Of a DNA stretch of 64,000 bases, positions 31,531-45,872 are shown piece after piece (position 1 is the stretch's first letter; each line of letters opens with the position of its first letter). Origin of the DNA: an uncultured cyanobacterium (GTDB lineage Bacteria > Cyanobacteriota > Cyanobacteriia > Cyanobacteriales > Nostocaceae); assembly GCA_963706595.1 (NCBI GenBank), contig OY970166.1, forward strand, positions 384,001 through 448,000. Reading direction: 5' to 3'. The notes under the pieces are model-generated. The model did no database searches, was not told the DNA's origin, and saw only the letters and a program-made list of their open reading frames with translations. The position numbers and the translations under genes are program-made.

Positions 31531-33852
31531 TCAAGATATGACTTTTGGTTGAAATTTACGCAATCTCAGGGCATTCGTGACTACAGAAACCGAAGACAAA
31601 GCCATTGCAGCACCGGCAAGAATCGGATTTAGCAACCAGCCAAAGAACGGAAACAGAATTCCCGCAGCGATAGGAATGCCAATAACGTTGTAGATAAAGG
31701 CAAAGAACAGGTTTTGGCGGATATTGCGAATGGTCGCCCGGCTGAGTTGAATGGCTGTGATGATTCCTTGTAAGTCTCCCGAAATCAGTGTAATATCGCT
31801 AGCGGCGATCGCCACGTCTGTTCCTGTACCAATAGCAATTCCCACATCTGCTTGTGCGAGTGCAGGCGCATCATTAATCCCATCGCCTACCATGGCCACA
31901 ATTTTAGCTTGACCCTTTTCACTTTGCAGAGATTGAATCATCGCCGCTTTTTGGTCTGGGCGCACCTCTGCAAATATTCGCTGGATGCCAACTTGTTGCG
32001 CGATCGCTTCCGCAGTTTTGCGATTGTCTCCAGTCAACATTACTACTTCTAATCCTAGCTTTTGCAGTATTTTTACTGCTGCTGCTGACGATGATTTCAG
32101 GGCATCAGCAATCCCCATAACTCCTTGGATTTCGCCATCTACAGCCATGAAAATCACTGTTTTAGCCGCAGTTTCCCAAGTATCTTTATATTCGTGGAGA
32201 CTGTCAGTATTGATTCCCAGTTCTGACATCCAGCGTTGTGTCCCAATCTGCACCAAGCAATCTGAAACCACAGCTTGCACACCACTACCTGCGATCGCTG
32301 CAAAATTATCAGCTTCAGTTAAACTCACCTCTTGAGATTGGGCATATCTTACCACAGCTTCAGCCAAGGGATGCTCAGAATTGCGTTCCACAGTAGCAGC
32401 CAACTGTAAAAGCTGGAGTTCATTATGATTAGCCGTACCTTTGACAGAAACAAAATCTGTCACTGTGGGTTTTCCTTGAGTTAAAGTCCCAGTTTTATCG
32501 AGAACAATAATTTGAATTTTGTGTGCTAGTTCTAAGCTTTGGGCATCTTTAATTAAAATACCATTTTCCGCCCCTTTGCCAGTGCCAACCATAATTGAAG
32601 TCGGAGTAGCTAGACCTAAAGCACAAGGACAGGCGATAATTAATACACCCACCGTGGTCATGATGGCTAGGGTAAAGTTACCCATAAAATTAAACCAAAT
32701 CACAAAAGTGGCGATCGCGATCGCAATTACAACAGGTACAAACCATCCCGTAACCTGATCTGCTAATCGTTGAATTGGCGCTTTAGAACCTTGGGCTTGC
32801 TGCACAAGTTTGACAATTTGCGCCAAAAACGTATCATTTCCCACTCTTGTCGCCCGAAACTGAAAACTACCAGTTTTGTTAATCGTCGCCCCAATCACCT
32901 CATCCCCAGGATGCTTCTGCACAGGTAAACTTTCACCAGTTACCATCGCCTCATCAACCGTAGAAGTACCAGTAATCACCTCACCATCTACCGGAATCTT
33001 TTCCCCAGGGCGCACCAAAATCACATCATTGATTCTGACTTCCGTAATCGGAATATCCATTTCCACGCCATCACGGATGACTCTAGCATTTCTCGGTTGT
33101 AGTCCCATGAGTTTGTGAATAGCTTCAGAAGTTTTTCCCCTGGCGCGATGTTCTAACAACCGCCCCAGCAAAATTAAAGCAATCACAATCACTGAAACTT
33201 CATAATACACATGAGGTATCAAACCCTGAGCCATAAAAAATCCAGGGAAGAGAGTCACAAATACAGAATAGAGAAATGCTGCACTTGTACCCACAGCCAT
33301 CAAAGTATCCATTGTTGCTGTATGGTGTTTCAGGGCTTTCCAACCATTCACATAAAAACTCCATCCACACCAGAATTGTACAGGTATAGTCAACACTAAC
33401 TGCACCCAATAATTATGGAGAAATGCGGGAATAAACGGCACATTTAACCCAGTCATCATGGGTATGGAACCGACAAACATGATCATCCCAATCACACCCC
33501 CCACAATCACCTTGCGGGTAATTTCTCGGTCTTGGGCTAACTTACTGGCTTTCTCAGTTTCATCTTCTCCAGCCAGAATGTCTTTTTGCGGTAAATAAGA
33601 AGAGTATCCCGCAGCATCGATAGCGGCTTGAATTGTCTTTAAATCAGTACGTTTTCGGTCATAATTAATTGTGGCTTGCTCAAAACCAAAGTTAACGTTA
33701 CAGTCAGTCACCCCTGGAACCGAGCGAATTGCTTGGTCGATATTATTCGCACAGGAGGCGCAACTCATACCTTTGAGTTTGAGTGTGAGAGTATCCATAT
33801 TAAGTAAACCACTGTGACTGATGTCGGGTGTTGAAGCAGCAGTTGCATCCAT
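31531..33852 (-). CDS. copA: Copper-translocating P1B-type ATPase (CopA/PacS-like)
   Basis: GMSCASC, CPC, DKTGT, SEHPL, GDGIND, YN and MALSS motifs; start may be 33798. Confidence 0.92.
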
Positions 33853-33992: not shown

Positions 33993-34187
33993 TTAAGCCA
34001 CTGGATAGCCAGCAGCCGCTAACGCCTCCTTAATTGCTGTTTCTGACGCTTGAGTTTCTACGCTCACAAATTTGGTTTGTGGATCAGCCTGAATGGTAGC
34101 ATTGGCATCAACTGTTTTCACTGCATTGGTAATGTTGGTTGCACAAGCAGAACAAGCCATATTGGGAACTGTCAGTTTGAGTATCAT
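33993..34187 (-). CDS. copZ: Copper chaperone (HMA domain, Atx1/CopZ-like)
   Basis: MACSAC motif; 64 aa from ATG at 34187. Confidence 0.85.
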   Translation of the reverse strand: MILKLTVPNMACSACATNITNAVKTVDANATIQADPQTKFVSVETQASETAIKEALAAAGYPVA

Positions 34188-34315
34188 AAATTTACGGTAT
34201 GGAATAAAAGAACGATCAAAACCAAGCTTGTATCTGCCCAATTGCAGCCTGCAAAGCTAACTCAGCCATGCAATTTGGCTTTTACTGATGACTAGCGGAG
34301 ATTTACCTTATATTC

Positions 34316-34347
34316 ATCCTAAACTCTCTAGCCAACTAGAGAGTCTA
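34316..34347 (-). promoter_or_regulatory. MerR-type promoter/operator of the copper operon
   Basis: -35 TAGACT, 20-nt spacer, -10 TAGGAT; palindrome ACTCTCTAG-N4-CTAGAGAGT. Confidence 0.8.
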
Positions 34348-34488: not shown

Positions 34489-34624
34489 CAATACGCTTGG
34501 TGTTAAGAAAATTGTAGGTTGGGTAGAACGAAGTGAAACCCAACAAAGTCATGCAAATGTTGGGTTTCGTTCCTCAACCCAACCTACTTAGACGTTGACT
34601 TTTAGGCTTAACTGAACTGTATTG
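34489..34624. mobile_element. MITE with 10-bp TSD and internal REP-like palindrome
   Basis: CAATAC...GTATTG ends; AAGTATATGT on both sides. Confidence 0.8.
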
Positions 34625-34682
34625 AAGTATATGTATAGCAACCGCCAAGGAAGGTTAAGACATAAACGGATAATCAAATTTA

Positions 34683-34854
34683 GAGGATATTTGAAAAGTT
34701 TTGGGCGAATATAATTCGCTACTACACAAGCAAAGTCCACCTGCGTGGACTAATGAAAAATTCAGGTTTTTAACCCGCGCAGGCGGGTTTTGTTTGTATA
34801 GCCGCGACTTCTAGTCGCCAGGGCTGTAATAAATTAGACTTTTCAAACAACCTC
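34683..34854. mobile_element. MITE with GAGG...CCTC ends (IS5/IS1031-like)
   Basis: GAGGATATTTGAAAAGT / ACTTTTCAAACAACCTC. Confidence 0.7.
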
Positions 34855-35096
34855 TAAAGAGGTTTTGACTTCAAATCAGCAACGCCTGATTTCTGATAGC
34901 TTGTGTATTTCATCAACATCAAGAACTCCGAAGAATGCAATTCAACGGGGATCTAAGACTCTCGGTGTTGGCAAAGTATGAAGGATTAGATACATTCAAA
35001 AAGTCTACTACTGCTCATCAAAATTGCAGTCTTCGCCATAGCTAAACTTGTATGGACATATCTGAAAGTTGAGAGAAATTGACCCAAACTTTCAAG

Positions 35097-35149
35097 AAAA
35101 AAGGCTTGGATAAACCAAGCCCTTATGTATACCAAGCATTTACTACACC
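35097..35149 (-). ncRNA. Candidate sRNA unit 1
   Basis: GATGAA (35180-85), N18, TAAATT; GGCTTGG/CCAAGCC hairpin + T6. Confidence 0.6.
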
Positions 35150-35249
35150 AATAATAATTTAATCTTTCTATGCCTTTAGTTCATCCTCCTATAGGATGTG
35201 TGCAAATAGCCGAAAACCTGATAAGTCAATAAATGGTTTATTTAACCAT

Positions 35250-35307
35250 AAAAAAAGGTTTGGCTATGAACCAAACCCTGATTATTGCTGTGCTTAACAA
35301 CGTACTA
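35250..35307 (-). ncRNA. Candidate sRNA unit 2
   Basis: GATGAA (35338-43), N17, TACAAT; GGTTTGG/CCAAACC + T7. Confidence 0.55.
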
Positions 35308-35373
35308 AATTATAATTGTAAATTACTCTTTTTAAAATTCATCTTCCTTTAGTCAGTGGTCAAATATTATTAA

Positions 35374-35536
35374 GAGGTTGTTTTAAAAGTAGTTGGCTGT
35401 AATGTTAAGCACGATTTGATCCCCCCTAGCCCCCCTTTTTAAGGGGGGAACTAGAATCAAAGTCCCCCTTTTCAAGGGGGATTTAGGGGGATCTATAATA
35501 TTTTGCTACCGACAATAAGACTTTTAAAACATCCTC
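35374..35536. mobile_element. MITE with GAGG...CCTC ends and TAA duplication, inserted upstream of unit 2
   Basis: GAGGTTGTTTTAAAAGT / ACTTTTAAAACATCCTC. Confidence 0.8.
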
Positions 35537-35592
35537 TAAGACTAATATGTGATTTTCTCTTGTGTTAATTCCATTCATCTATCAAAAGTATG

Positions 35593-35644
35593 AAAAAGGC
35601 TTGAACAAGAGCCAAGCCTTTATATACCAGGTGTTTACCATATT
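35593..35644 (-). ncRNA. Candidate sRNA unit 3
   Basis: GATGAA (35674-79), N18, TAAATT; GGCTTGG/TCAAGCC + T5. Confidence 0.6.
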
Positions 35645-35845
35645 CAGCTAATTTATAGATAAACTTATCTCATTTCATCTGTCTTAAAGTTGTGTACAAA
35701 TACTCTTAAATGTGATACTAAGCCTTGTATAGCTATAAACAAAATTTTACAAAAAATCTATACATATTGCTAATAAATTTATTCATCCTCTGGTAATATG
35801 TCATCTGATTTTAATCAAAATCTCATGAAAATTAGTTTTTCTCAC

Positions 35846-35900
35846 AAAGAAAACCCTGGCGTTGATTCCAGGGTAGATATATGTTTTTCAGGCATTAATG
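35846..35900 (-). ncRNA. Candidate sRNA unit 4 (divergent)
   Basis: GGTAAA-N17-TAGTAT; CCCTGG/CCAGGG + TTTTCTTT. Confidence 0.4.
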
Positions 35901-36039
35901 AACTGAATACTAACACGAACAAAAAGTTATTTACCCTACCTATCGATATACAGGAAATGAATCTTATCTATGATAGGGTGACAAGATATTTTTTTTCCAT
36001 TAACTAAAAACTTGAGTAAGGCTCTCAGTTAAAACACAC

Positions 36040-36093
36040 AAAATAGGCTTGACTTTCGAGCCAAGCCTATATATACCAAGAGTTTACCATATT
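36040..36093 (-). ncRNA. Candidate sRNA unit 5
   Basis: GATGAA (36123-28), N18, TAAACT; near-paralog of unit 3. Confidence 0.6.
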
Positions 36094-36259
36094 GTATTAG
36101 TTTAATTATGATTATACTAAATTTCATCTATCTATAGGTCATATCTAAATTTCTGGAAATATGATAATAATTTAGATTTATACAAGAAATTATTTTGGTA
36201 TTATTTAAACATCCATGATACTAATGGCAATTCATCAATTAGTGATTACATAGATTATA

Positions 36260-36420
36260 TATAGGACTCATATTTGATTTATGAAACACACGTAGGATGT
36301 GTTATCGAGGAGATTACGACACCAAGACTCAGAAGACGGTGCGTTAGGTTAAAGCCATAACACACCCTACATATACTACATATACTTAGATTTTTTCAAT
36401 AATCAAATCGGAGTCCTATA
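36260..36420. mobile_element. MITE
   Basis: TATAGGACTC..ATTTGATT / AATCAAAT..GAGTCCTATA; related copy at ~50612-50738. Confidence 0.75.
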
Positions 36421-36494
36421 CATACGAAATTTTATCTTGATGAAGAAATACATTTTATTATAAGTATTCATGCGAACATGATATGATTTTATAT

Positions 36495-36541
36495 AAGAAA
36501 GGCTTGGTTTACTGCCAAGCCTCAGTAGAAGTAGAATCTAT
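36495..36541 (-). ncRNA. Candidate sRNA unit 6
   Basis: GATGAA (36572-77), N18, TAAATT; GGCTTGG/CCAAGCC + TTTCTT. Confidence 0.55.
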
Positions 36542-36635
36542 CAAAATAATTTAGCTATTTGAATGGCATTATTCATCATCCAATAGGAAGTTTACAAATA
36601 TTTTACAAGGTGATATGGCTCGAATCTGTGAGCAT

Positions 36636-36689
36636 AAAAAGGTTTAGCATTTAGCTAAACCTCCATAGAAAGCAGTTATTCGACACACC
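36636..36689 (-). ncRNA. Candidate sRNA unit 7
   Basis: GATGAC (36720-25), N18, TAAATT; GGTTTAGC/GCTAAACC + T5. Confidence 0.55.
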
Positions 36690-36899
36690 AAGATTAATTT
36701 AAACCTACCGTTTATTAGGGTCATCTTGCTACGGGATGTGTTTAACTATGTTGTAATATGATATGACGTTACTTGAACAAAGCTTATAGCCCATAAATCC
36801 TCTGGTAATTTTCTTAATACCAAGTTAAAATTACTTTTGAATTGCGTCCATAAAACCCCAGTTCATCCTCACCAAGATGGTAAATTATACACAACTACA

Positions 36900-38426
36900 C
36901 TAACTTGCAGGAACTAAATCAGTTAATATGAGCCTAAATGTTGTCCATCCCTCACTGCTTTCAACTTGAATAGTTCCTTGGAGTTTTTCAACTAACTTCT
37001 GCACTATAGATAACCCTAATCCTGTACCACCTTGATTCCAAATGTCAGCATTAGGGAGGCGATAAAATTTATCAAAAATTCGCGATAATTCGGCTGTGGG
37101 AATTTCTAAGGAATTACTAATAGTAATGATAGTTTTGGCGGGTATTTCCGAGGAATTATGATCTATACTCAGGATGATTTCGCCACCAGCCGGAGTATAT
37201 TTGCAGGCGTTATTGAGTAATTCTGCTAAAATTCTCTCTAAGCTAGTACCGTCTGAGAACAGCGATGGCAGATTTGAGGGCAGATTTAATTGTAAAATTT
37301 GCTGATGTTCTTGAACACGGACTTGAAACGGCTCAATTACCCAAGGTATCCATTGTTCTAAGAGTAAGACATCTGGAGTAATCAACGGACGGACTTCAGA
37401 TTCTAAGCGTTGTAAGTCTAGTAAATCATTAATTAGTGCCATTTCGCGATCGCACTCAATTTCCAACATTTCCAAATAGCGCTGATTTTCTTCAGGTGTG
37501 ATAGACAGTTGTAACATTTGAATCATCACCTTCATATTGCTCAGAGGCGATCGCAACTCGTGAGACAATAAATTCAAGAACTCATTTTTGAGTTCATTGA
37601 TTTCTGCCAATTGTTCTAAAAGTTGCTCTTGCTCAACTTGCTTTTGACGAGCCTCCATCGCCTGTTTGCGCTCAGTCACATCTCGGAAAATTAATACAGC
37701 ACCCGTAATCCGATCTTGATCATCTTTAATGGGTGCAGCACTGTCATCAATGGGAATCTCTGCACCATTTCGCGAAATCAGAATTGTTTCTGCTGGTAAA
37801 CCAACGACAGTCCCCTGTTGCAGGACTTTTGTGATCGGACTTTCTATAGGCTCGTGAGTTTCTCCATGAGCAATATTGAATACTTCTGATGAATTTTTCC
37901 CACAAGCTTCTTCCTGTTTCCAACCAGTGAGACTTTCAGCCACAGGATTCATAAAAGTGATCAATTCCTCAAAGTCGCTAGAAATTACTCCATCACTGAT
38001 ACTATTCAAAAGTGTAGTTAACCATTTTTGATGCGTTTTTAATTGTTTTTCTAAGTGATGTTTAGTCAGCGCTATTTCAATATTTATTTGTAGCTCTCTT
38101 TCTTTAAAAGGTTTTAGTAAATAGCCAAAAGGCTCAGTTACTTTGGCTCGATCTAAAGTTTTATCATCAGCATAAGCCGTGAGATAAATTATGGGAATAT
38201 CCAAATATTTGTGAATTTCATGAGCTGCTTCTATCCCATCCATTATCCCTTTTAATCTAATATCCATTAGCACTAAATCTGGACAAAATTCTAGAGATTT
38301 ATTAATTGCTTCTTGTCCTGAAGAAGCAATACCAGAAACTATGTAACCAAATTTTTGTAGCCGATTACGTAAATCTTTAGCAACAATAGCCTCATCTTCT
38401 ACTATGACAATTTTTACGTTTTTCAT
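36900..38426 (-). CDS. Hybrid REC-PAS-histidine kinase
   Basis: IVIVEDE/DLVLMD receiver, PAS, SHELRSPL, GGTGLGL. Confidence 0.9.
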   Translation of the reverse strand: MKNVKIVIVEDEAIVAKDLRNRLQKFGYIVSGIASSGQEAINKSLEFCPDLVLMDIRLKGIMDGIEAAHEIHKYLDIPIIYLTAYADDKTLDRAKVTEPFGYLLKPFKERELQINIEIALTKHHLEKQLKTHQKWLTTLLNSISDGVISSDFEELITFMNPVAESLTGWKQEEACGKNSSEVFNIAHGETHEPIESPITKVLQQGTVVGLPAETILISRNGAEIPIDDSAAPIKDDQDRITGAVLIFRDVTERKQAMEARQKQVEQEQLLEQLAEINELKNEFLNLLSHELRSPLSNMKVMIQMLQLSITPEENQRYLEMLEIECDREMALINDLLDLQRLESEVRPLITPDVLLLEQWIPWVIEPFQVRVQEHQQILQLNLPSNLPSLFSDGTSLERILAELLNNACKYTPAGGEIILSIDHNSSEIPAKTIITISNSLEIPTAELSRIFDKFYRLPNADIWNQGGTGLGLSIVQKLVEKLQGTIQVESSEGWTTFRLILTDLVPAS

Positions 38427-38440
38427 GATGCAACCAGTAT

Positions 38441-40371
38441 TTATACTAGGGGAAAATCGATTTGAAATTCTACTCCGATATCGCTATTAATAGTGATATC
38501 TCCTGAGAGTTGACTACTTAAAGCATCGATTAGTTGCCAGCCTAATGATGCTATATTGTTAAAATCAAACTTGGGTGGTAAACCAATGCCATTGTCCCTA
38601 ACTATAAGTGAAATCTCATTCAGCGAAATATTTTGGATTTCAATGTTAATTTTACCCGACCTACCTCCAGGAAAAGCATATTTTAGAGCATTAGAGACAA
38701 GTTCATGAATAATTAAACTACAAGGAATTGCTGTATCTAAACCCAGCGAAATGCCATCATCAACCTGAATATATACATCAATCAAATCTGTATTTAATTC
38801 GTAGGAAGTGCATAAACTTGAGACTAAATCTTGGACATATTCATTTAAATTGATTTTGGCTAAATCTGGTGATTGATACATCTTTTCATGAACTAAAGCC
38901 ATTGAGGCGATGCGCTGCTGACTTTGCTGAAATATTGCCATATCTTTGGCATCTTCGATATATGCAGATTGCAAGTTTAGTAGGCTAGAAATAACTTGTA
39001 AATTGTTTTTAACTCGATGGTAAATCTCTTTTAACAGCACTTCTTTTTCTAGAAGTGATGCTTGAATTTGCTCATTTGACTGCTTGCGATCGCTAATATC
39101 TTCGACAACAGAAATAAAGTAATTTGGCTTACCAGAAGGTTCGCGCATTAAAGACACTGTGAGATTAATCCAGACGATGGAACCGTTTTTACGGAAATAG
39201 CGTTTTTCCAGAGAATAATTTGAAATCTCACCTGCTAACATCTGATTAATATGATCAATATCAATCTCCAGATCATCTGGGTGGGTAATATCCTGGAAAG
39301 TGAGAAACTGTAGTTCTTGGGATGTGTACCCAACAATATCACAAAGCTTCTGGTTAACCAATTGCCACTGTCCATTCGTGCCTACATGAGCAATCCCAAC
39401 AGCCGCTTGATGAAATGCTGCGCGAAATTGCTGTTCGCTTTCTCTTAATGCATTCTCAATTCGCTGGCGTTCGGTGATTTCTATTTGTAGTGAATCGTTG
39501 ATTTTTGTTAACTCAACTGTTCGTTGTTCAACTATATTTTCTAGTTGATCTAGTAGATTACTTAAAGCCACCTCTGCTTGCTTGCGCTCAGTAATATCAG
39601 TATGTGAACCTACCATCCGAACTACATTACCATTTTCATCCCACAGCCCTTGACCCCGATCCAAAATCCATTTGTAAGTCCCGTCTTTACATAAAACTCG
39701 ATGCTCGTTAGTGTAAAACGGTGTGATCTTAGAAAAATGATTTTGAACTGCTGTCAGCACCATGTCACGGTCATCTGGATGCACCCGCGTCATACGTTCA
39801 TTTAAGTAATTGGCAATCTCATGTTCTTCATAACCGAGCATTTCTTTCCAGCGCGTCGAAAAGAAAACCTCACTGGTCTTCACATTCCAATCCCAAATAC
39901 CATCATTATTACCACGTAAAGCTAACTGCCAGCGTTGCTCAGTTTCTCTTAGCACCTCTTCTGTGCGTTTGCGTTCAGCAATCTCCTTTGCTAGTTGGGC
40001 ATGACTGGGAAGGCTCAGGGCTTTAGGTATTAATGGGAACAATTCTATAGCTGTCAAAACAGACACAAAAGCCGTGATAGCTTTGATTAACCCAGATAGC
40101 CAATAAGTAGGATGCCAAAGCGTCCACACATCCATAACATGGGTTGTACCGCAAGCAACAATAAATGTGCTAAACATGAGCAATATCCCCCGAAAAGGAA
40201 TATCTCTTCGTTTGCGGACAAAATAGACCAGCATGACTGGAATAGAATAGTAAGCAAGGGCAGTTAAGGAATCAGAAATAACGTGTAACCAGACTAATCC
40301 CGGTTTCCAGAGATAGCAATGTCCGTGAGGAATAAACTGGGTAGGAAAAAAAAATTATCTAGAAGTTCCAT
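38441..40371 (-). CDS. Ethylene-binding-domain-like, 2xPAS, HisKA_2-type sensor kinase; frameshift in the A9 run at 40346-40354
   Basis: The frame upstream of the listed ORF reads [10 protein letters not shown]...[13 protein letters not shown], then [20 protein letters not shown]. Confidence 0.8.
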
Positions 40372-41991: not shown

Positions 41992-42624
41992 ATGAAAACC
42001 GGGATATATTTAATATCAAACTCAGACAGAGGCATGGGTTACATTGGTAGTAGCCAGAACATAGATAAACGCTGGGGTCAGCACAAAAGCTTTTTAAACC
42101 TGGATAAACACCACTGCAAGGCACTACAGGCGGCTTGGAACTATTATGGTAGGTCTGCGTTTCAGTTGGTAGTTCTAGAACTCTGCGAGGTTACAGAGTT
42201 GGCAGGGTTAGAGCAGATATATCTCAATACTGCGAACTGGGCAACTCTGTACAATACCTCCCGATGTACAGATTCACCTATGAGAGGGTTAAAAGGGCAT
42301 AAATGGACTGAGGAAGAGAAAAAGCGACTTTCAGAGATGTTTAGAGGTGAACTTAACCCCATGTACGGCATAAAGGGCGATTTACACCCCTCGTCCAAAA
42401 TACGGGGTCAACTACATCCCGGATATGGCAAACCTAGACCGCCTGAATCCGTCGCCAAAAGACATCGCAAATATGTCGTAACTTCCCCAGGTGGCGAGGT
42501 GTTCCAAGTATCTGGCTTACGTCCTTTCTGTGTTACCCACGCCCTAAACCAAGGAAATTTAACTAAAGTTGCACAGGGTAAACGCAAGACATACAAAGGC
42601 TGGAATTGCCAATATTTAGACTAG
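41992..42624 (+). CDS. GIY-YIG homing endonuclease with NUMOD3-like repeats
   Basis: GIY...YIGSS..I..RW..H, GHKWTEEEKKRLS, NPMYG, C-terminal TYKGW. Confidence 0.85.
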   Translation: MKTGIYLISNSDRGMGYIGSSQNIDKRWGQHKSFLNLDKHHCKALQAAWNYYGRSAFQLVVLELCEVTELAGLEQIYLNTANWATLYNTSRCTDSPMRGLKGHKWTEEEKKRLSEMFRGELNPMYGIKGDLHPSSKIRGQLHPGYGKPRPPESVAKRHRKYVVTSPGGEVFQVSGLRPFCVTHALNQGNLTKVAQGKRKTYKGWNCQYLD

Positions 42625-43121: not shown

Positions 43122-45872
43122 TTAACTATCTTTTTTCTTGCTTCGCTTTTTCTTCTCAACTTTGAGCAATGGCGTACTCAGTGCTTCATAGAGGCTAAAT
43201 AAATATTCGATGCGATTTAGTTCGCTAACAAAAGGCTGGGGACGATAGCAAAGGTCTACGGCTTTGTCTAGGGCTTTATGTGCTTTTACCAAGTCGGGCG
43301 GCATGGTGAGAGGATCGTAAAGATCAGCGAGACTGCTATCGGGATATTTTGCTCTTGTGTCTAATACTGCTTGTGCGGCGGTTTCGATTTTTTGCTTTTG
43401 TTTGTCGCTGACATTTTCAGGGAATGGATAATTGTTGTAAACGATTGTGTTTGAATAGCGAAAACGACTTTCTAATCTTCCACAAACATACTTAACCCAA
43501 GTCATGTGCATTTCTGAAGTGAGAATACCAAATAGATATAGAGTTGCATTAGGTAAACCAAATGCAAGATTACTAACGATTGTATCTTTACTCAGAAACC
43601 CTATTGGAATATATTTTCGATTTTCAGAAGAAACACTTGGAATTAATAAGTAATCAGAATTAGGCTGTCTATTCTCAGTAAATAATGTTGGAAATTCTGC
43701 CCATTTTATTGTTGAGGTCTTTGTACTAGCTAACCTCATTTTTTTTACTAATTCTACTTTTTTTAATAAGTGAGGAAGTTTCTTAAGTTCTTCTGGTTTA
43801 ATAGTTATTAGCCAGAAGCACCAACGATAGACGTTATTGATAAATTCCTCTGAACCAACAAATCTTCTAATAAACTTTTCTGCTTTTGGCTCTTTTTGCA
43901 AAAAAAGATTCTTTTCTTCATCTGAAAGCAGTAAATTTCCTCCATCTGTAGGTTGGCTACCTTTGACCATTTCAGGCACATTAGAAATTGGCTTAACTCT
44001 TTTTAAAATGATTAGATCATTTCCTTCGGTCAAGTATGGATTAATATTTTTCGCTTTTCTCTCTGTTGATTCACCTTTAATATTTATATACTCAAAGAGC
44101 CTCTTATTTTCAATATCTTGCAACCCAAAGCCAATAATCACACAATGTACAGCCGCATTACCTTTTGCCTCATTACTCCAACTAAAAGTACGATGGGCAA
44201 AATGAATCTTGATTTTATATTTACTATAAAGTTCTTGCCAAAGAATCCCAACTTGCTCACCTTGAGAAATTGAACTTGTACTAACAAAAGCACAACGAAT
44301 ATCAGTATTTTGAATAGTCTGACTTGCTCTAATATACCAAGCAGTTACATAGTCTAATAAACCTGAACTTTTTACATTCCCAAAAACACTTTGCATATCA
44401 GACTTCTGTTGTGAATCTTGGTATGTTTTACCGACAAATGGAGGATTACCCAAAATAAAATTTAACTTCTCTTTTGCAACAACAGACTCCCAATCAATCC
44501 GCAACGAATTACCATGCACAATCTTCGCGGATTTCTTCAAAGGCAACCGCACAAAATACTGTCCAAACTCATTACTCACCTTCACATTCATCTGATGATC
44601 AATTAACCACATCGCCACTTCAGCCACCCGCACCGCAAACTCATCATACTCAATCCCCGCAAACTGATCGACATCCACCTGAATAAACAACCGGACATCA
44701 AGGAAACTTTTGTGCTTCCTATACAATTCTTTTAAAATTTCAAGCTCTAAATCTCGCAACTCTCGATAAGTGATAATTAAGAAATTGCCACAACCACAAG
44801 CAGGATCGAGAAAATGTAAATTTGCAATCTTTTTATGTAATGCTTCTAATTTTCCCTTACTACCCTTAGCCTTCTCAAATTCAATATAAAGATCATCCAA
44901 AAAAAGCGGCTTAATCAACTTTTGAATATTCTTCTCAGAGGTGTAATGCGCCCCTAAATTGCGCCGTTCCGTCTGATTCATCACCGCCTGAAACATTGAT
45001 CCAAAAATTGCAGGAGAAATTTTACCCCAATCAAAGGCACAAGCCTTTAACAACATTTCACGCATCTGCTTATCAAAAGCAGCAGGTTGTACAGTCTCTT
45101 CAAATAACTTCCCATTTACATAGGGAAACTGTACTGAATTCTCATCTAAATTTTTGAACCGCTTCTCGTTTGGGGTATTTAAAGTATGGAAAATCCAAGC
45201 AATGTGCATCGCCAAATCACTGCCATCTTCCTTCGTATGCAAATCAATATATTCCCAAAAAATCCCCTTATTAAAAATGCCTGTATCATCAGCAAACATA
45301 CAGAACAATAGCCGCACTAGATATACTTCTAGATCATGCCCTATGTAACCAATTTCTTTGAGGCGATCATGCAGATCCCCCATCAATTCAGCCGCCGCAA
45401 TATTGACAGGATCTTCATCCTTATAAACCCTTTTTTCATATCCCGCTATAAAGCCGAATAGATGCACATGATTTACAAAATCTTGTAGCTCAAACTCTTT
45501 GGTTTCGTTCGTATCTAAATCATAAAGCCTGAATTTTTGGAAATCCGACACCAAAATATATTTCGGTAACTCATGCTCCTTTAAATTTGGAAAATAATCT
45601 TTTGCTTGTTGTGTAGCCTTATCTAAGTCCTTGCCCCTAGACTTATGCTCCACCAAAATCATTCCTTTCCACAAAAGATCGATAAAACCCTGTTTATTGT
45701 CCGCCTTTTTGATTGGTAACTCAAAACTCCCCACTCGCCGCCGTGAAATGCCAAACACATTAAAAAAGTCATTCCAGAAGGATTGCGACTCTGACTTCTC
45801 TGAAGTTTCACTTTCCCATTCCTTAGAAAAAGCGATCGCCCTTTGCTTAATTTCATTCCAACTTAGAGGCAT
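43122..45872 (-). CDS. MmeI-like Type IIL restriction-modification enzyme
   Basis: ID.....LVEHK nuclease, GAHYT, DPACGCGNF, GNPPF, SLADLYDP. Confidence 0.9.
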   Translation of the reverse strand: MPLSWNEIKQRAIAFSKEWESETSEKSESQSFWNDFFNVFGISRRRVGSFELPIKKADNKQGFIDLLWKGMILVEHKSRGKDLDKATQQAKDYFPNLKEHELPKYILVSDFQKFRLYDLDTNETKEFELQDFVNHVHLFGFIAGYEKRVYKDEDPVNIAAAELMGDLHDRLKEIGYIGHDLEVYLVRLLFCMFADDTGIFNKGIFWEYIDLHTKEDGSDLAMHIAWIFHTLNTPNEKRFKNLDENSVQFPYVNGKLFEETVQPAAFDKQMREMLLKACAFDWGKISPAIFGSMFQAVMNQTERRNLGAHYTSEKNIQKLIKPLFLDDLYIEFEKAKGSKGKLEALHKKIANLHFLDPACGCGNFLIITYRELRDLELEILKELYRKHKSFLDVRLFIQVDVDQFAGIEYDEFAVRVAEVAMWLIDHQMNVKVSNEFGQYFVRLPLKKSAKIVHGNSLRIDWESVVAKEKLNFILGNPPFVGKTYQDSQQKSDMQSVFGNVKSSGLLDYVTAWYIRASQTIQNTDIRCAFVSTSSISQGEQVGILWQELYSKYKIKIHFAHRTFSWSNEAKGNAAVHCVIIGFGLQDIENKRLFEYINIKGESTERKAKNINPYLTEGNDLIILKRVKPISNVPEMVKGSQPTDGGNLLLSDEEKNLFLQKEPKAEKFIRRFVGSEEFINNVYRWCFWLITIKPEELKKLPHLLKKVELVKKMRLASTKTSTIKWAEFPTLFTENRQPNSDYLLIPSVSSENRKYIPIGFLSKDTIVSNLAFGLPNATLYLFGILTSEMHMTWVKYVCGRLESRFRYSNTIVYNNYPFPENVSDKQKQKIETAAQAVLDTRAKYPDSSLADLYDPLTMPPDLVKAHKALDKAVDLCYRPQPFVSELNRIEYLFSLYEALSTPLLKVEKKKRSKKKDS

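Follow-up and report, generated by a model that had tools for sequence, protein, structure and literature searches.

A conserved array of small RNA genes with one promoter type and diverged 5' segments, paralogous to RF02596, in heterocystous cyanobacteria

We analysed a 64,000-nt stretch of a 5.57-Mb cyanobacterial genome (hereafter the window) and found that positions 35097-36765 carry, on the minus strand, an array of seven short units with no credible ORFs across the region. Each unit has its own promoter and its own intrinsic terminator, the terminators covary among relatives, the 5' segments are conserved between species, and the promoter type is restricted to genes for small RNAs. The units are paralogues of the Rfam family RF02596 (cyano_het_sRNA). 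On balance we think it probable that they are trans-acting sRNAs of one clan, siblings that grew by duplication, whose 5' seeds have diverged and which answer to one activator. This agrees with the initial annotation, which had proposed individually promoted sRNAs multiplied by duplication with diversified 5' regions. Positions of all features are collected in Table 1.

Table 1. Features of the array in the window, from unit 7 to unit 1, and clan members of other types located elsewhere.
Feature	Position	Strand	Remarks
Unit 7 promoter, type A	36696..36763	-	TATCA at 36763, GATGA at 36725, -10 TAAATT at 36701-36696
Unit 7 sRNA, type A	36634..36689	-	Conserved 5' segment ~36689-36665; terminator hairpin 36664-36638 plus U-tract; RF02596 27.8 bits
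Unit 6 promoter, type B	36548..36615	-	Promoter-pattern and matrix match
Unit 6 sRNA, type B	36493..36541	-	C/U-rich 5' hairpin; RF02596 22.4 bits
MITE-like interspersed repeat	36250..36430	.	Inserted between units, outside the clan; 29 genome copies; plasmid matches
Unit 5 promoter, type C1'	36099..36166	-	Promoter-pattern match
Unit 5 sRNA, type C1'	36038..36092	-	GUAAACUCUUGG; GUAAACACUUGG fills the slot in most other genera
Unit 4 promoter, type D, divergent	35907..35975	-	Upstream ATAG-N-TAG and spacing kept; GGGTA replaces GATGA; -10 TAGTAT
Unit 4 sRNA, type D	35847..35900	-	UUAAUGCCUGAAAAAC core; CCCUGG..CCAGGG terminator; no RF02596 match
Unit 3 promoter, type C2	35650..35717	-	Promoter-pattern match
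Unit 3 sRNA, type C2	35591..35643	-	GUAAACACCUGG; fold and conservation
MITE-like interspersed repeat	35365..35545	.	Takes the place of the unit 2 distal promoter element; 29 genome copies
Unit 2 promoter, type E, truncated	35309..35365	-	GATGA at 35343
Unit 2 sRNA, type E	35249..35307	-	Start 35304-35307; orthologue of PCC 7120 5335648r; RF02596 28.5 bits
Unit 1 promoter, type F	35156..35223	-	Best consensus match
Unit 1 sRNA, type F	35095..35149	-	Orthologue of PCC 7120 5335498r
Type G, G-like and unclassified members	L050:5556-5611; L053:6680-6737; L060; L164; L102; L105-L107; L056		The unclassified RNA is L056

All seven of the units that had been claimed for the minus strand are present at their places, with starts irregularly spaced at 148-449 nt and predicted RNAs of 49-57 nt that fit the proposed size of ~50 nt. 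Read from unit 7 to unit 1 they represent types A, B, C1', D, C2, E and F. The strict promoter pattern TATCA-N10-WAKTTR-N17-GATGAM-N18-TAAAYT has exactly five matches in the whole genome, and these are units 1, 3, 5, 6 and 7. A short form of the pattern occurs six times in 35050-36800 relative to a mean of 0.003 (maximum 1) in 5000 shuffles. Units 2 and 4 are looser, as had been noted, with the distal promoter of unit 2 replaced by a repeat while its proximal part is kept, and with GGGTA in place of GATGA in unit 4. A sixth match to GATGAC-N18-TAAATT lies at 35776-35805 with neither an RNA body nor a terminator behind it, and is possibly a decayed unit or a second promoter for unit 3.

A promoter motif was drawn from 116 promoters and consists of TATCA near -74, TTTG-N-ACAC near -57 to -49, CCT-NN-AG(G) centred near -42, and, in the -35 position, ATGA(A/C)N followed after 17 nt by TAAATT (the spacer is 18 in RF02596). 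Judged by consensus sequences, this would be a sigma70-type promoter with an activator site that abuts the -35 box. When the genome was scanned with a matrix trained without it, six array units and RF02596 came out on top with scores of 30.6-54.7, followed by a next score of 19.8 and a shuffled maximum of 19.0, so that past these seven nothing clearly exceeds the shuffles. Among protein-coding genes only weak matches to the proximal half were seen, near the shuffle level. Promoter identity to RF02596 is 0.57-0.80 for six units and 0.36 for unit 4, and this divergence of the unit 4 promoter is a point against the preferred reading. Exact-match searches of the 116 promoters returned no TCCGGA (DIF) motif, in keeping with the initial annotation, and no GTA-N8-TAC, the consensus of the NtcA box, over -78..-13. 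The LysR-type pattern T-N11-A fits just 69 and 74 of the 116. The stretch directly upstream of the array, 36900-40234, codes for two kinases, a histidine kinase of receiver-PAS type and one with ETR1_N/PAS and HisKA_2 domains. Within the genus these genes adjoin the array; elsewhere they do so in 3 of 10 genera, with an inversion in one. These adjacent two-component genes were rejected as the regulator, given that they have no DNA-binding domain and are next to the array in so few other genera. The promoter model also has weak matches upstream of a YihY-like gene, in a genome that lacks the array (L154, G036), and, in genus g55, upstream of non-coding sequence that is conserved (L168, L169); these could be pointers to further targets of the regulator.

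When the array is followed across species, the unit order is fixed as A-B-C1-D-C2-E-F-(G), with losses. Twenty arrays in relatives were reached via clusters of weak RF02596 matches, and a promoter-only search of 21 further genomes added 85 promoter matches, 72 of which carry an exact type motif of 12-15 nt, the remaining 13 being variants, decayed copies or G-like types. The 5' segments had been described as variable, which holds between units; between species they are instead the most conserved part. Specifically, the first 20 nt equal the consensus in 26/30 A, 35/36 E, 27/30 F and 28/30 C2 copies, counts that somewhat overstate conservation as they were made on rows with at most four mismatches (for C2, with an exact core), and column identity is 0.99-1.00 over the 5' 20 nt versus 0.62-0.76 over the adjoining promoter spacer. 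Type B (unit 6) is the least conserved. Among the other genomes for which array loci were available, 29 of 41 have the type of unit 4 in the same slot, which rules out that this unit is degenerate debris. In two small rearranged genomes (G085, G130) units A, C1 and C2 and RF02596 are scattered with their sequences unchanged; since the 5' segments are kept when the units are scattered, each unit is selected on its own. Types G and G-like, which are absent from the window, are further members of the clan that occur after unit F or alone in other genera.

The promoter model at E<=0.05 finds 102 of 146 family genomes, of which 74 have a best E<=5e-5 and mostly 4-10 copies while the other 28 have weak matches only; the 74 and 28 were counted by eye, and 14 of the 74 had contributed to the model. 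In a sample of the phylum the same model matched 16 of the 18 genomes from the family and, among the 122 from outside it, 2, each of these with a single weak match. By these promoter matches the array is kept in one clade, in about half of the family's genomes. Within the genus the flanks are stable, with the upstream kinases in 9/10 and the downstream copper chaperone/ATPase genes in 8/10 genomes (the misses are at contig ends), and in other genera the flanking genes mostly differ.

Every predicted RNA ends in a 3' hairpin plus U-tract, with z of -2.2 to -4.1. The hairpin consensus put forward for all units fits six of the seven, unit 4 having CCCTGG..CCAGGG instead. Covariation of the hairpins in relatives had been named as a trial of the sRNA reading, and the terminators do covary, with compensatory changes in 4/10 and 3/10 pairs and 99% of cells paired; no such change is called for to maintain a stable fold of the 5' part. 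The unit alignments contain no conserved ORF.

The 5' segments themselves fall into at least five unrelated sequence classes. The core GTAAA-N3-YTGGTATA was confirmed as common to units 1, 3 and 5, and types C1, C1', C2 and F share an invariant frame in which an outer stem and a 3-bp inner stem are possible. This frame bears on the main rival reading, in which RNA-binding proteins, one or more, would be titrated by the 5' segments acting as structural ligands, in the manner of Csr/Rsm- or 6S-like decoys. Such a role would suit an invariance that covers whole 20-mers, beyond short seeds, and a promoter seen before sRNAs only; the GacA-RsmY/Z pattern is likewise an sRNA-only regulon. We nonetheless hold decoys to be unlikely. 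No motif is common to all of the classes and no consensus 5' fold is predicted in the unit alignments. Furthermore, the inner stem of the C and F types, for which one G-C/A-U exchange between paralogues was seen, is broken in 9 of 40 rows, and same-sense copies of the segments are neither enriched nor conserved in 5' UTRs.

The relationship to RF02596 changes one conclusion of the initial annotation, which did not recognise the family. A covariance scan gave no match at the gathering level (cut-off 35.7 bits), yet RF02596 scores 17.1-28.5 bits on six of the seven units, with none on unit 4, and in relatives two units of the array score above the cut-off, at 36.8 and 37.5 bits. The true RF02596 gene of this genome is a single copy at G000:C1:3603474-3603529 (80.8 bits), 3.2 Mb from the array, and it is this separate copy, not the array, that holds the 5' sequence GGGAUGUUGUUAUGCACUGG and the locus adjacent to NsiR8. 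RF02596 is like the array in promoter architecture, size, terminator family and clade, and its 5' segment is related to that of unit 2 through a GUUGUUA core. In contrast, it stands alone elsewhere with a promoter spacer one base longer, and the array 5' segments differ from its own. Compared in this way, the array units are paralogues of RF02596 within one clan, not members of the family; a shared promoter and terminator type, which we propose as the mark of this clan, is present in both.

Part of this clan is already in print as transcripts of Nostoc PCC 7120. The Rfam consensus of RF02596 equals the sequence of 4547237r in Table S3 of PMC4734099, and NsiR8 neighbours RF02596/4547237r in both genomes. 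In the consulted part of that paper 4547237r is confirmed by Northern blot and primer extension, rises with culture density and with long N starvation, and has homologues confined to 12 of 27 heterocystous genomes tabulated. The same Table S3, from 2016, gives TSS and terminator entries for 5335648r and 5335498r as predicted sRNAs, and their 5' segments are identical to those of units 2 and 1, respectively. Transcription is thus published for RF02596 and for orthologues of units 1 and 2 (PMC4734099). The dRNA-seq starts of the latter map to 35148 (unit 1) and 35304 (unit 2), within 1-3 nt of the predicted starts, and the two units lie 150 nt apart in PCC 7120 and 156 nt apart here. 5335648r is listed as validated by Northern blot; since one probe primer for it sits in the neighbouring unit, the blot may not separate the two RNAs. 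Both RNAs have low read counts that do not run in parallel (121/9/12/5 versus 8/4/9/11), and so they do not show co-regulation. In the portion of PMC4734099 consulted each of the two RNAs has a row of its own, without being grouped into a family or array, and no promoter, target or function is given for them, and its Table S3 has no further unit between 5335648 and 5345513. What appears to be already known, then, is that orthologues of two units and one paralogue are catalogued transcripts, the cluster and its targets being unstudied. A description of the array, its promoter or its targets was not found in the literature searched, a scope that left most subscription journals and theses outside, and the consulted parts of PMC3610870 and PMC11797042 do not mention it.

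The initial annotation had likened the layout to the NsiR1 array while keeping the two apart, and this distinction is upheld. Like the NsiR1 array, ours consists of tandem sRNAs of about 60 nt or less with individual promoters in heterocystous cyanobacteria, and NsiR1, in the same clade, provides a case of the start-region pairing that we propose (PMC9045159, in part). Its divergent copies have different targets, which is again in line with what we propose here. NsiR1, as described in that source, has 12 near-identical copies with DIF1 promoters upstream of hetF. In contrast, the array has mostly unrelated 5' segments, no TCCGGA, spacing of 148-449 nt and variable neighbours, and it does not comprise near-identical copies upstream of hetF. 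The csRNA1-5 (CiaR) and Qrr1-5 sets (PMC4211561, consulted in part) and LhrC1-5 (LisR) also place several sRNAs, tandem or dispersed, under one regulator, but these siblings share a seed and are largely redundant, whereas the array has promoter and terminator in common and at least five unrelated classes of frozen, presumed seeds. As with such sibling sets, the units are homologous, and transcripts are in print for the orthologues of two. By analogy, the array is a system that would work like the NsiR1 array and the csRNA/Qrr sets and is a member of none of them. Known sibling sRNAs repeat one seed; here the cassette is repeated, and the seed was diversified and later became frozen in dozens of genera, bloom formers and symbionts among them.

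The preferred reading, a clan of trans-acting sRNAs, would begin with an ancestral cassette made up of an activator-dependent sigma70-type promoter, a 5' segment of 20-25 nt and an intrinsic terminator. This cassette would have been duplicated in the ancestor of one heterocystous cyanobacterial clade, with each copy fixing its own 5' segment. The activator would bind directly upstream of the -35 box, at a CnTCCT-NN-AGGAnG-like site near -42 and at boxes near -57 and -74, and would induce all units jointly, the likely occasion being a culture that is dense or has starved for long. The ~50-nt RNAs would then each pair, via their weakly structured 5' segments, with the translation-start regions of their own mRNAs and repress them. 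We consider the common regulator, the inducing condition and the base-pairing mode quite likely; pairing in trans and co-regulation are read from the anatomy of the units and their shared promoter. At least two of the units are present in PCC 7120, a model strain in which function and regulator are open to test.

We looked for targets by scanning 4586 start regions, called crudely, for duplexes with each of the seven 5' segments. No outstanding target emerged and no candidate is significant genome-wide, the per-target p values of 0.002-0.005 being those after selection from 4586 genes. A perfect match of the 5' 11-mer to some start window was observed for 1 of the 7 RNAs and occurs in 11-24% of shuffles. 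Two candidates were left after a check of conservation, sigA and a DUF6679 gene; it counts against both that about 11 of 99 sampled genes have start regions that are >=90% conserved.

For sigA (NF005643), nucleotides 1-11 of unit 2 form a perfect Watson-Crick match to +11..+21, at rank 43 of 4586; with a 16-nt 5' seed picked post hoc the site is tied for rank 1. RF02596 pairs over -1..+24 at -23.4 kcal/mol, which places it 18th of 4586. Fold predictions leave most of the site unpaired. It is invariant in 15/15 array genomes, yet the same holds for 13 of the 14 genomes that lack the array, one not being parsed. It is possible, although we would not count on it, that sigA codons 1-8 are a target of unit 2 and RF02596. 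Should this pairing hold, the housekeeping sigma factor would be under the direct control of sRNAs, the invariance of a 48-nt stretch at the sigA start would be explained in part, and the orphan Rfam family RF02596 would gain a context. No other sigma factor is in the top 40 for any RNA. As an observation in its own right, the sigA start region from -24 to +24 (G000:C1:2244568-2244615; L217, L220-L249) is invariant in 28 of the 29 genomes parsed, synonymous sites included, and by this alignment it is an ultraconserved cis element with or without the array.

The second candidate is the start region of the DUF6679 gene (PF20384), where unit 7 covers -14..+10 (rank 26) and unit 1 covers the start codon (rank 119). 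The start-codon site is present in 17/17 array genomes and 15/15 other family genomes, and the upstream unit-7 site in 13/17 and 9/15, respectively. Two of the four exceptions, from one genus, lack unit 7; the other two (G085, G074) have a changed site with unit 7 unchanged, and this lack of a compensating change in the RNA counts against the pairing. We therefore regard this region as a rather doubtful candidate target of units 7 and 1. The protein is a conserved cyanobacterial one of 103 aa (G000:C1:3637573-3637884; L257:274-582), present in 30/30 genomes searched, and the literature searched contained no paper naming it. Its structural model (pLDDT 74) best matches Hfq structures, with Z 9.4 and rmsd 1.6-1.8 over 59-61 residues, at a Foldseek E of only 3e-3. 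DUF6679 thus models as an Hfq/Sm fold, a shared fold that shows no function. The probable Hfq of this genome is a different protein, encoded at C1:259068.

Four other target candidates, among them the sheath-like gene treated below, failed or were patchy on conservation. A cheY-like target of unit 3 was rejected with a site of the strength seen in the window in 1/12 array genomes and 1/11 others, as was a TRAP-type binding protein target of unit 1, with its site in 1/3. The dxs site for unit 6 is partly kept in 4/4, at energies of -11.6 to -17.2. In addition to these four, an 802-aa secreted-type ORF ranks first for units 3 and 1 in the scan. Pairing of the units with tRNAs does not rise above shuffles. 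Taking sigA and DUF6679 together, one can picture a set resembling a microRNA cluster, in which one dedicated activator has a regulon made up solely of ~50-nt RNAs, at least eight, with different frozen seeds that jointly throttle core functions of gene expression, namely the primary sigma factor SigA (unit 2, RF02596) and a second, uncharacterised protein of Hfq fold (units 7, 1), as the clade's growth-arrest or resting-cell switch; we consider this full picture speculative and unlikely to hold as a whole.

The units might also act on one another, as a sponge network in which some trap others or other sRNAs, much as Yfr2 traps Yfr1 (PMC11797042, seen in part). Units 7 and 2 pair at -15.5 kcal/mol, a value equalled by 1.5% of 2000 shuffles, but this is one among 28 pairings, so that chance is likely, the other pairs are weak, and both units stand behind the same promoter type. 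We judge a sponge network improbable.

Lower still in probability is that the units are guides against phage or phage-derived contractile sheath mRNAs, with the C/F loops reading synonymous variants of the P-G-V-Y codons of sheath genes. The genome has a short contractile-injection-like cluster at G000:C1:1219180-1228644, with sheath-like, tube-like and following ORFs by a look at the sequence, and the loop of unit 3 complements the P-G-V-Y codons of a sheath-like gene perfectly over 12 nt, at rank 2 of 4586. Nevertheless, matching codons occur in only 4/14 sheath starts from array genomes and 1/11 from others, the exact site is in the sheath gene of 3/28 genomes, and some array genomes have no sheath match. 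The reversed-pattern control of the P-G-V-Y scan contains a GGWCC site, which we take to be avoided in these genomes, and this control was therefore set aside. Phage searches with three of the seven units returned E>=0.9 in non-cyanobacterial phages or nothing, and invariant seeds are unlike an arms race. The suggested search for a phage or plasmid origin of the 5' segments found none; plasmid matches, among the 20 of 60 listed, come from the two interspersed repeats alone.

Finally, the very improbable reading of the units as non-functional or cis-acting repeats (terminator or promoter debris, mobile repeats or a CRISPR-like array), for which mobile repeats in the spacers and low transcript counts in PCC 7120 could speak, is largely refuted by conservation, with unit order and 5' segments constant in many genera whose flanking genes change, at a single-copy locus with terminators between units and with no CRISPR repeat model matching at the gathering level. 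The array is not a CRISPR array, as had been stated, given its irregular spacing, invariant 'spacers', a promoter and terminator for each unit, and no cas gene in 28-44 kb.

Several features of the surroundings were recorded as well. Downstream of the array lie multicopy palindromic repeats at 34490-34600 and 34670-34870, with 30 and 71 genome copies, the latter having sub-threshold CRISPR-DR28 matches. An inverted repeat at 34324-34345, which resembles a MerR/CueR-type operator, precedes the genes for the copper chaperone (33993-34199) and P-type ATPase (31531-33852). On the other side, a look at the sequence indicates a GIY-YIG-like endonuclease ORF at 41992-42624 and a large DNA methyltransferase ORF at 43122-45872.
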